From positions 19,267 to 83,266 of the IMG/VR virus record IMGVR_UViG_3300007609_001696: 64,000 nucleotides of DNA; one strand, written 5' to 3'. The notes below the pieces were generated by a model. That model made no database searches, had not been told where the DNA came from, and worked only from the letters and a program-made list of their open reading frames with translations. Source of the DNA: a virus. A program made the translations under genes and the position numbers. This document shows, piece by piece, positions 41,015 to 42,138 of this stretch; position 1 is the stretch's first letter, and every line of letters starts with the position of its first letter.

Positions 41015-41419
41015 TTACAACTTGCCTTCGGATCTCAGTTGTGCTCTGATCTTGGTTGCTGAAATTTCATGTATGTCTGCACCTAGATCGTGTTGTGTGA
41101 ATGTGTATCCAACACCTCTGCCATAGCTGATATCAACTATATTAGGCACTTGCGTGATAACATAGTCTTCATCTTCGTGAAATCCTTCCGCAGCAAGTGC
41201 GGTTCTAATGTTTACTACCACTTGAGAAAATGTAAACGGGTTATCATTTTGTCCAGGTACCCTGGCGTTTGCTTCCGTGTCAGCTGGCACATCTCTGCAC
41301 ATAATACACACTTGTCCAGTTTCTAACAATGCTTTTTTAAAAAGGGCTGTGTGTCCATCGTGCCAAGGTTGCCAGCGGCCCATTAGCATAGTAGTCGGGT
41401 GCTTCCAGTTAAAACTCAT
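41015..41419 (-). CDS. HxGH nucleotidyl-/adenylyltransferase (minimal)
   Basis: GRWQPWHDGH, NPF, ISATKIR. Confidence 0.8.
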   Translation of the reverse strand: MSFNWKHPTTMLMGRWQPWHDGHTALFKKALLETGQVCIMCRDVPADTEANARVPGQNDNPFTFSQVVVNIRTALAAEGFHEDEDYVITQVPNIVDISYGRGVGYTFTQHDLGADIHEISATKIRAQLRSEGKL

Positions 41420-42030
41420 ATTTTTTCCTTACAGTTATCAAAGTGTCTTTTTTTCATACTACCTAAATATCTTCCTTCGGACCCGCAATGCGGACATGTA
41501 ATATTAGGTTTTGATTTAATAGTATTCGCAGATTTTAATCTTGATTCTTTAGTTATTACTTGTTTTTTTCTTGCTTGACGAATTTTATTTTTTGTTTCTT
41601 CACTTACAGATTTACCTGTGTGTGTTTGTTTAATTCTTTCCCTGTGAGCAGGATCTTCCCATAATGCCTTAGATGCCTGTCTTAGTTTTTCTATATATTC
41701 TGGATTTTGGTTTCTGTTCTTTGCGGCTACGCTTAATTTATTTCTTACTTCTTCATCTAAATTAAACATTAAATTATTTCGTTGATTATATACACTTTCA
41801 GATGTAAGATCTAATTCATTTAACATTCTATTTTCAACTTCTTGACATTCCTTCATTGGTCCTTTGTGTAAAATTTCTCTTTCCCAAATATAATCAGGAT
41901 TATTAAAATCGTTCCAAAACCTCTCAGATGCTGAAGAACACACATAGCCGTCGTTTTCTGTTCCTTTGTGGTATCCTATATAAATCTTATTCAATGTCTT
42001 GTTTGTCCAACGATATACAAATGAGTCCAT
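41416..42030 (-). CDS. GIY-YIG (Seg-like) homing endonuclease with a NUMOD3-like segment and Zn ribbon
   Basis: FVY.W.N..KIYIG.H...Y..S; SEETKNKI; CPHC...HFDNCK. Confidence 0.85.
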   Translation of the reverse strand: MDSFVYRWTNKTLNKIYIGYHKGTENDGYVCSSASERFWNDFNNPDYIWEREILHKGPMKECQEVENRMLNELDLTSESVYNQRNNLMFNLDEEVRNKLSVAAKNRNQNPEYIEKLRQASKALWEDPAHRERIKQTHTGKSVSEETKNKIRQARKKQVITKESRLKSANTIKSKPNITCPHCGSEGRYLGSMKKRHFDNCKEKI

Positions 42031-42072
42031 AACTTTCTCCTACAAAGTTATTTATCATATTGTGCCATTAAC

Positions 42073-42138
42073 CTAACATTTATGCCACCGGCCCAACATC
42101 TGTGTGGTAGGTTTCTTCCAATCAAATTTCTTTTCCAT
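42073..42138 (-). pseudogene. 21-aa stub of the original 5' end of the nucleotidyltransferase gene
   Basis: MEKKFDWKKPTTQMLGRWHKC* vs MSFNWKHPTTMLMGRWQPWH; GGAG RBS. Confidence 0.8.

Follow-up and report, generated by a model that had tools for sequence, protein, structure and literature searches.

How can an endonuclease gene come to lie inside the coding region of another gene while that gene still reads as one complete frame? The question is raised by a locus on a 64,000-nucleotide (nt) stretch of viral DNA (the window, by which we mean the whole stretch; positions 19,267 to 83,266 of IMG/VR record IMGVR_UViG_3300007609_001696), in which a homing endonuclease gene (HEG; 41416–42030, minus strand) separates a short open reading frame (ORF) from a nucleotidyltransferase gene (NT; 41015–41419, minus strand) with a similar beginning. 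An initial annotation, made from the letters of the window, had proposed that a cassette carrying the HEG together with a divergent copy of the NT 5′ end had inserted into NT, rescuing the gene without an intron or intein. Comparison with related viral genomes and metagenome contigs fixes the insertion point, identifies the short ORF as the severed resident start and the start in use as foreign, reveals empty alleles and links the foreign start to the HEG. The overall account that we favor, and hold to be very probable, is that a mobile Seg-like HEG cassette inserted at TGGCA/A (the slash marking the joint), supplied NT with a replacement start and left the resident start behind as a stub.

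The severed start and its uninterrupted alleles

All genes at the locus lie on the minus strand, in the order kinase, DUF2061, stub, 20-nt relic, HEG and NT. The stub is a 21-codon ORF (42073–42138; MEKKFDWKKPTTQMLGRWHKC, then stop) with a GGAG ribosome-binding site (RBS; 42148–42145) 6 nt upstream of its ATG, and its stop lies 42 nt before the ATG of the HEG. NT (41419–41015; 134 amino acids) starts MSFNWKHPTTMLMGRWQPWHDGH and ends with ISATKIR; its start codon sits in an ATGA overlap with the HEG stop, and its RBS (AAGGA) lies inside the HEG 3′ end. The initial annotation had drawn attention to the stub with its own GGAG and to the ATGA-coupled restart of the full gene, and both are present in the sequence. 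Its count of 9 identical residues among 14 aligned between the stub and the NT start in use, several of them encoded by synonymous codons (CCT/CCG, ACC/ACT, ACA/ACT and CGG/CGC), was reproduced exactly, and the similarity does stop, as it had claimed, right after TGGCA (stub 42087–42083; gene 41374–41370) and before the HxGH motif. As DNA, the two segments align weakly (score 23; shuffles: mean 15.6, s.d. 2.2, maximum 26), and the case is not rested on this alignment because it stands only marginally above shuffled sequences.

The case rests instead on relatives of NT. The best 80 of 215 NT-encoding IMG/VR stretches (L001–L080; 64–77% amino-acid identity) were compared, and 79 of these 80 have no HEG. 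All 79 carry a single intact NT gene with a stub-like start, M(x)FDWKKPT(T/A)QMLGRWQPWH, in the order kinase, DUF2061 or another gene, NT; a second start-like peptide was sought in each and found in none (0/79). This alignment had been set beforehand as the test of the cassette proposal and came out as predicted (79/79), and the opposite pattern, in which HEG-less relatives begin with the MSFNW version and still carry the stub, does not occur among them. The stub is closer to these starts than to the start of its own gene: it matches L018 and L042 at 17/18 residues (E 2–3e-8, with the 64-kb window searched) and L001 at 14/14, and it tracks the DNA consensus of the 79 loci through TGGCA, departing thereafter. 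Relative to the same consensus, the start in use has lost a Gln codon and gained another codon (TTQMLG to TTMLMG), and carries other changes besides. The stretch from 42138 to 42083, start codon to TGGCA, is the original 5′ end of the resident NT, and the final three codons and stop of the stub derive from the insert, which entered 17 codons into NT, immediately 5′ of the HxGH-motif codons. Extra DNA between kinase/DUF2061 and NT in L035, L045, L052, L053 and L064 was also considered and proved to consist of unrelated ordinary ORFs, not endonucleases; NT starts in these five loci are ordinary.

Uninterrupted alleles are also found among metagenome contigs compared over window positions 40000–43700. 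In four contigs from three marine plankton runs (two from X2, one each from X3 and X4), 42083 is followed immediately by 41369, with 713 nt skipped; the joint reads TGGCA/ACC, and the TGGCA shared by the two sides leaves a five-letter ambiguity. The X3 contig (record 21; 380 nt) fuses 42243–42083 to 41369–41151, with mismatches at 2 of 161 nt on the DUF2061/stub side and 7 of 219 nt on the NT-body side. A single uninterrupted NT gene, opening with the stub sequence, is thus present in the DNA of a close relative of the window. Contigs of run X1, which is probably the sample of origin, come from more distant HEG-less relatives and skip 717 nt, with four letters between the two sides.

The runs are listed as DNA ('DNA?'); the joints show an allele, not splicing. 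This bears on the explanation that loss of the insert occurs in RNA or protein, through a group I intron, an intein or ribosomal bypass, and that the stub is the true start. Such a scheme could appeal to the RBS and open frame that the stub retains, and to the related locus L089, whose stub is in frame with the endonuclease; in the window, however, the stub stops 42 nt ahead of the HEG, the downstream NT has its own RBS, ATG and complete start, and in L067 and L092 the stubs are broken while NT is intact. No Rfam family, introns included, matches 40900–42500 at E ≤ 1, in keeping with the earlier claim of rescue without an intron, and the HEG lies outside any intron or intein, having its own RBS and start between separate flanking ORFs. 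With the joined form occurring as DNA in metagenomes, we consider this explanation barely credible.

The same presence/absence polymorphism at one site recurs between near-identical genomes in IMG/VR. L089, which has a HEG, and L076, which has none, share 99.93% identity over 2966 nt to the left and 99.67% over 2735 nt to the right, and HEG-less L073 and L079 give the same picture against L089. On the left, identity spans the entire 47-nt stub to ...GGAAGATGGCA; on the right, 7 mismatches are packed into 22 nt (3787–3808, including TGG to TTT), beyond which none occurs for 768 nt, until 4576. The net difference is 842 nt replacing 4 nt (ACCT), at the same TGGCA/A point as in the window. Despite the near-identical flanks, the start in use in L089 (MSKFSWQAPCSQMLGRF) is unalignable with the resident start over its first 27 nt. 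It is thus of foreign origin and did not arise by divergence of a local duplicate. A HEG gene flanked by two start-like segments is also what would be expected had the NT 5′ end been tandemly duplicated, the HEG inserted later between the copies and one copy diverged where it stood. That history is contradicted by L089, whose flanks remain 99.7–99.9% identical to those of L076, and by the occurrence of one replacement start alongside one HEG clade across NT backgrounds that are 49–62% identical; we regard it as highly improbable.

The replacement start and its endonuclease

The whole inserted cassette comprises 713 nt (41370–42082), as delimited by the contig joints and by alignment with locus L188, its borders being ambiguous by the five shared letters TGGCA. 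It opens, directly after the TGGCA of the stub, with a 20-nt relic, 'U' (42063–42082), which resembles the consensus left half-site of the target (CAAATGCTAGGACGATGGCA) with a few changes and is probably a decayed copy of it, on the evidence of exact copies elsewhere and of alignments. A leader with its own GGAG (42031–42062; GGAG at 42040–42037) follows, conserved among the cassette copies in L081, L089, L067 and L188, and then the intact, free-standing Seg-like HEG of 204 amino acids. The cassette closes with a replacement NT 5′ end, delimited by DNA comparison with relatives and consisting of codons 1–16 plus CA (MSFNWKHPTTMLMGRW; 41370–41419), beyond which lies the resident NT body (41015–41369), from QPWHDGH with the HxGH motif to ISATKIR and the stop. 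A T4 late promoter was considered for the leader, which contains GATAAATA, yet the window holds no excess of TATAAATA (2 found, 3.2 expected).

Relatives of the HEG connect it with this replacement start. Eighty were kept, and the neighbors of 31 were examined (L081–L111, with L112–L160 set aside): the 12 closest (L081–L092; 54–80% identity) all adjoin an NT gene, and none of the next 19 (L093–L111) lies beside one. Against the order of the window, kinase–DUF2061–stub–relic–HEG–NT, L188 has kinase–ministub–relic–HEG–NT, and L081–88 have gene X–relic–relic–HEG–NT–kinase–DUF2061; L089 and L067 have kinase–DUF2061–stub–long HEG–NT, L092 has kinase–decayed stub–HEG–NT, and L091 has kinase–NT–ministub–HEG–unrelated gene. 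The window, L188 and L081–88 have a common start class, MSF(N/D)WK.PTTML(M/L)GRW. Identity to the window is 85% for the endonuclease of L188 and 77% for those of L081–88; for the NT bodies it is 62% and 49%, respectively. The window's replacement start finds its best DNA matches in L081–88 (0.74), the loci with the most distant NT bodies (0.56 at the nucleotide and 0.44 at the amino-acid level). This class is absent from the HEG-less relatives of L188 and L081; among those of the L081 NT (L170–L180, 85–92%), all 11 that are readable have the ordinary ...VQMLGRW start. The long-HEG pair L089/L067 has a second replacement class, ..PC(S/T)Q(M/V)LGRF.

The limits of what is shared are sharp. The window and L188 are 85.9% identical over 764 nt (42099–41336) with unrelated flanks; per 30 nt, 13–14 positions are identical outside the cassette and 23–29 from 42085 to about 41336. 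By these comparisons, the NT terminus in use is foreign and travels with the HEG, and the joints in X2–X4, the L089/L076 pair and this co-travel of start and endonuclease together bear out the insertion of a cassette with a divergent 5′ end copy, as first proposed.

The endonuclease itself matches phrog_314 'homing endonuclease' (1.9e-19), and tblastn finds matches in 312 phage records, some annotated SegD and full-length, with E down to 7e-12. Its best matches are Seg-type phage endonucleases, neither Mob enzymes nor enzymes of the WHO/HO type (intein-like LAGLIDADG with a zinc finger). NUMOD3 is found in 8 of 12 aligned HEG relatives (best 2.1e-21); it reaches 6.3e-7 in L067 and is weak in the window copy (E 0.23). 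The I-TevI alignment discussed below spans both the GIY and the YIG segment as well as the invariant Glu. The HEG is probably a free-standing Seg-like enzyme composed of GIY-YIG, NUMOD3 and a C-terminal zinc ribbon. It is also a mosaic: codons 1–172 are closest to the long L089 enzyme (80% amino-acid identity, the identity extending over residues 1–173; synonymous differences, pS, 0.28), and the C-terminal zinc ribbon is of the short L081/L188 enzyme type, which accompanies the TTML.GRW replacement start. Comparison with L081 gives non-synonymous differences (pN) of 0.13 against a pS of 0.76, and the ratio of non-synonymous to synonymous substitution rates (dN/dS) is 0.33 for the window HEG versus L089 and 0.14 for L089 versus L067, values that indicate maintenance under purifying selection. 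No paralogue of the HEG was detected in the window by tblastn; an ORF on the plus strand (26391–27560) was considered as a second nuclease and rejected as radical-SAM-like.

A candidate homing cycle

In the cycle that we propose, the cassette would carry, from 5′ to 3′, a relic of an old half-site, the HEG with its own RBS and the recoded first 16–17 codons of NT. The enzyme would cut the uninterrupted, conserved allele of naive genomes (...ATG CTN GGN CGN TGG CAA CCN TGG CA..., encoding MLGRWQPWH) during co-infection, and the break would be repaired from the co-infecting genome that bears the cassette, the NT body supplying the right homology arm and the stub or relic the left one. Insertion would sever the resident start (RBS, ATG and 17 codons), which would persist as the 21-codon stub, and the NT body would be translated from the imported start into a whole protein with no need of intron, intein or bypass. 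The imported start could be rendered uncuttable through a codon shift in the window class (the replacement starts of the window, L081 and L188 all show a one-codon shift) or through clustered substitutions in the L089 class (7 in 22 nt), and recoding may also lower the recombination between stub and start that would delete the element.

Exact copies of relic U lie just 5′ of a related HEG in 10 IMG/VR contigs, as two tandem copies in nine of them and a single copy in L188, and the stub of the window ends exactly where the first relic copy sits in the L081/L188-type cassette. We infer that the relics are collapsed stubs of earlier hosts that now move with the cassette, and they possibly serve as its left pairing site. 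Stubs are broken or decayed in L067 and L092, where NT is intact. In L183 and L184 (about 2190–2470), a deletion running from the stub into the HEG has left only its last ~31 codons, and the replacement NT start is kept (MRHKWNNSAPTVVLIGRY); these loci represent a degeneration stage of the element in L092/L182, and decayed stubs and deleted HEGs alike mark later stages of a homing life cycle.

The stubs and relics also admit a plainer account, in which an ordinary free-standing intergenic HEG came to lie upstream of NT, the imported start is a co-converted donor flank, and stubs and relics are inert scars of illegitimate one-sided repair. One-sided illegitimate repair of double-strand breaks is documented for T4 intron homing in the review by Edgell, Gibb and Belfort 2010 (PMC2988022), and stubs have decayed or collapsed in older contexts (L067, L092, L081 and L188). 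At the left junction, TGGCA is followed by C in four of six contexts (the window, after relic U; L081–88; L089; L067), a shared form that fits one ancestral event. On the other hand, the window stub ends exactly at the place of the first relic of an L081/L188-type cassette, as expected of a pairing site. Moreover, the lineages that the cassette has entered differ in their upstream genes (the carbamoyltransferase-like gene X, kinase and DUF2061), and in these no long left homology was available. We consider this account unlikely, although deserving of attention; it departs from the cassette account only on the function of stub and relic.

Several points do weigh against the cassette account. 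The common left junction could be the trace of a single ancestral illegitimate event that spread by flanking homology, with the stub as its scar. Two HEG-less loci, L043 (4001–4066; MSFDSKKPTAMLLGRW) and L014 (1052–1114; MFDSKKPTTLLLGRF), have starts resembling the replacement classes, so the cassette may simply have acquired a variant that existed as a natural allele; these starts could be natural resistant alleles, products of conversion without transfer of the endonuclease, or the outcome of clean element loss. L091 (2960–3620) has a related HEG (61%) with a 17-nt mini-stub (MLGRWQYK, then stop) downstream of an intact NT and followed by an unrelated gene; it looks like an ectopic or rearranged copy, which the plain model does not explain. 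Assignment of the nuclease domain is uncertain in that the Pfam GIY-YIG match (PF01541) is weak (E 0.19 for the window copy, 0.47 for L067), none of 12 relatives reaches E ≤ 0.01 (0/12), and the best PDB match of a profile built from 12 N-domains, the I-TevI catalytic domain (1ln0), is likewise weak (E 0.3). Translation from the imported start is a prediction from the sequence, as is any statement on whether the stub is translated or silent. Finally, we infer cleavage, the position of the cut, repair and the resistance expected of the recoded start from what is established about homing, as set out in a review (PMC2988022) and in the WHO model (PMC7282813).

Beside these loci stands a further feature of L089: at 2920–3003 its stub is in frame with the HEG ORF with no intervening stop (MFDYKKPTTQMLGRWHDMINNFVMEKVMDSF...), and the nuclease could therefore also gain a 27-residue extension from the resident RBS.

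Counterparts and gene neighborhood

Replacement of a gene end by a homing element has precedent in WHO elements and in fungal gene hybrids formed by mobile ORFs (mORFs). WHO elements of Torulaspora and Lachancea yeasts home into FBA1 and replace its 3′ end, as described by Coughlan et al. 2020 (PMC7282813). The likeness extends to a HEG beside a full-length target gene whose end is replaced at each integration, to the displaced native end kept as a fragment beyond the endonuclease gene, and to discordant similarity of gene end and gene body with no splicing needed (PMC7282813). There, the fragment is put forward as a recombination site and the imported end as a source of resistance (PMC7282813). 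By contrast, replacement here affects the 5′ end, with its start codon, RBS and 17 codons, and not the 3′ end; the exchanged tract measures about 50 nt, against about 400 nt in WHO elements; and the setting is a phage instead of a yeast chromosome, with a Seg-like enzyme (probable GIY-YIG/NUMOD3) in place of an intein-derived LAGLIDADG protein. Judged by its arrangement, the element seems to work like WHO without being a member of the WHO family.

The mORF gene hybrids, reported for atp6, atp9, cox2 and nad3 of Glomus and atp6 of Allomyces macrogynus (Beaudet et al. 2013, PMC3630166), are similar in that a foreign gene terminus arrives with a mobile endonuclease ORF (of GIY-YIG type in atp9) while the native duplicate persists, and in that the native copy is closer than the inserted copy to element-free relatives. 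They differ in affecting C-termini in organelle genomes, the hybrid often being read in frame through the endonuclease ORF (PMC3630166), whereas here the N-terminus is replaced and translation restarts at the ATGA overlap. The stub is likewise the native terminus, left on the far side of the HEG and closer to element-free relatives than the terminus in use.

In phages, the nearest published case that we found is the MobA/homR/gene 60 bypass cassette of T4-like phages, in which the insert-encoded region is 67–81% identical in DNA to the target (bioRxiv 10.1101/2022.08.31.505936). There too, a divergent homologous region borne by the insert keeps the target functional, and the occupied site is protected; the nuclease, however, is HNH, and 55–75 nt of resident sequence are deleted, leaving no stub (bioRxiv 10.1101/2022.08.31.505936). 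Its topoisomerase gene is split in two expressed, extended ORFs, and the cassette includes a 50-nt translational bypass, of which there is none here. Apart from the homologous replacement borne by the insert, the features of that cassette are not found at this locus, where the nuclease is Seg-type, the upstream piece has 21 codons and NT has its own ATG without an internal stop.

The free-standing Seg and Mob endonucleases of T-even phages ('intronless homing') are gained by break repair with co-conversion of flanks. One-sided microhomology junctions have been shown experimentally (Edgell, Gibb and Belfort 2010, PMC2988022). The present enzyme belongs, by similarity, to the same family (SegD-annotated matches) and its gene likewise adjoins the presumed target. 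We know of no T-even case with an insertion inside the target ORF, a stub of the resident start and a replacement start carried along, and none came to light in the literature searched. Friedrich et al. 2007 reportedly described nrdA of Aeromonas phage Aeh1 as split by mobE ('genes in pieces'), with both pieces functional and assembling as protein. That system resembles this locus in having a free-standing HEG inside a phage coding region with function kept without splicing; here, by contrast, what lies upstream is a remnant of 17 codons that the imported copy has rendered redundant. Beyond MobA/homR, no description of a phage HEG combining a residual start stub with an imported start was found in the main texts of the literature searched, and the stub-plus-replacement-start layout has no mention in the main text of Barth et al. 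2023. On this comparison, the locus is the phage, gene-start counterpart of WHO elements and mORF hybrids.

A broader reading, to which we give slightly less than even credence, is that the Seg-like family is a self-contained gene-start-swapping element and the phage mirror image of WHO. Its minimal unit would be a 17–20-nt relic serving as portable left homology arm, the nuclease gene and a recoded, resistant start with its own RBS and ATG; it would home into conserved HxGH-coding NT sites whatever the upstream gene order, the chain of stubs would record past hosts, and the C-terminal module would co-vary with the start class. If so, the pairing of zinc ribbon or long C-terminal domain with start class would amount to an arms race between cutter and target spelling.

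A HEG can, on the evidence of this locus, occupy a site inside an essential-looking coding region by bringing a substitute start and discarding the old one. Dead gene starts may account for short orphan ORFs that lie upstream of phage endonuclease genes, and the true start of the downstream gene is then chimeric: its first codons may have an origin other than that of the remaining gene, a point of importance for annotation, phylogeny and analyses of recombination. The occupied and empty alleles, with flanks about 99.8% identical, form a clean natural experiment in which degenerate stages are also present and the same cassette is found in at least four gene backgrounds. Since the insertion point is known to the base, cleavage and resistance are directly testable with synthetic substrates.

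The nucleotidyltransferase assignment draws on several searches. NT matches Pfam CTP_transf_like (PF01467; E 7.5e-4, 20.2 bits, just below the 21-bit cut-off), phrog_10255 over positions 124–228 (6.2e-18) and phrog_395 'cytidyltransferase' (7.2e-5), and, weakly, an archaeal nicotinamide mononucleotide (NMN) adenylyltransferase in the PDB (E 0.003). Both HDGH and ISATKIR are present in its translation, and we take the combination of HxGH with a C-terminal ISxTxIR-type motif, on a Rossmann-like fold, to be diagnostic of cytidylyltransferase-like nucleotidyltransferases. Upstream on the same strand, a P-loop kinase gene (42346–42765; 139 amino acids; Pfam AAA_18 8.1e-10 and APS_kinase 4.9e-6; phrog_10255 positions 2–118, 4.5e-29) is the first of the trio kinase, DUF2061 and NT. 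The DUF2061 membrane-protein gene (42122–42349, minus strand; 75 amino acids; Pfam DUF2061 4.3e-14) overlaps the stub start, and its 3′ end contains the resident NT RBS (GGAG, 42145–42148). Kinase and NT form a functional unit, to judge from phrog_10255, a 230-residue fusion of both halves. In seven IMG/VR loci (L172–L178, around 2400–2860), a single ORF combines DUF2061 and NT. Kinase, DUF2061 and NT appear to belong to one unknown nucleotide-handling pathway. No close relative of the locus was found among INPHARED phages, where the matches are distant kinase–NT fusions in Xylella, Xanthomonas and Stenotrophomonas phages.

The IMG/VR record comprises 83,266 bases and is rated 24% complete; the run that holds the entire window is labeled a soil metagenome, and the runs with close relatives are marine plankton metagenomes. 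The window contains a second HEG, of HNH type, at 46466–47117 on the plus strand, opposite to its neighbors (phrog_655 1.9e-37; Pfam HNH 2.8e-4). It is split into two overlapping ORFs (46466–46864 and 46842–47117) just after an A-run and is therefore either frameshifted or read by slippage; considered as a second instance of gene-start loss, it lies in a divergent intergenic location and, as far as examined, is not such a case. The NT start/HxGH region has a second, weak match (E 0.017–0.06) at 31611–31712 on the minus strand, within a 344-residue ORF (30699–31733) that may be another nucleotidyltransferase-fold gene.

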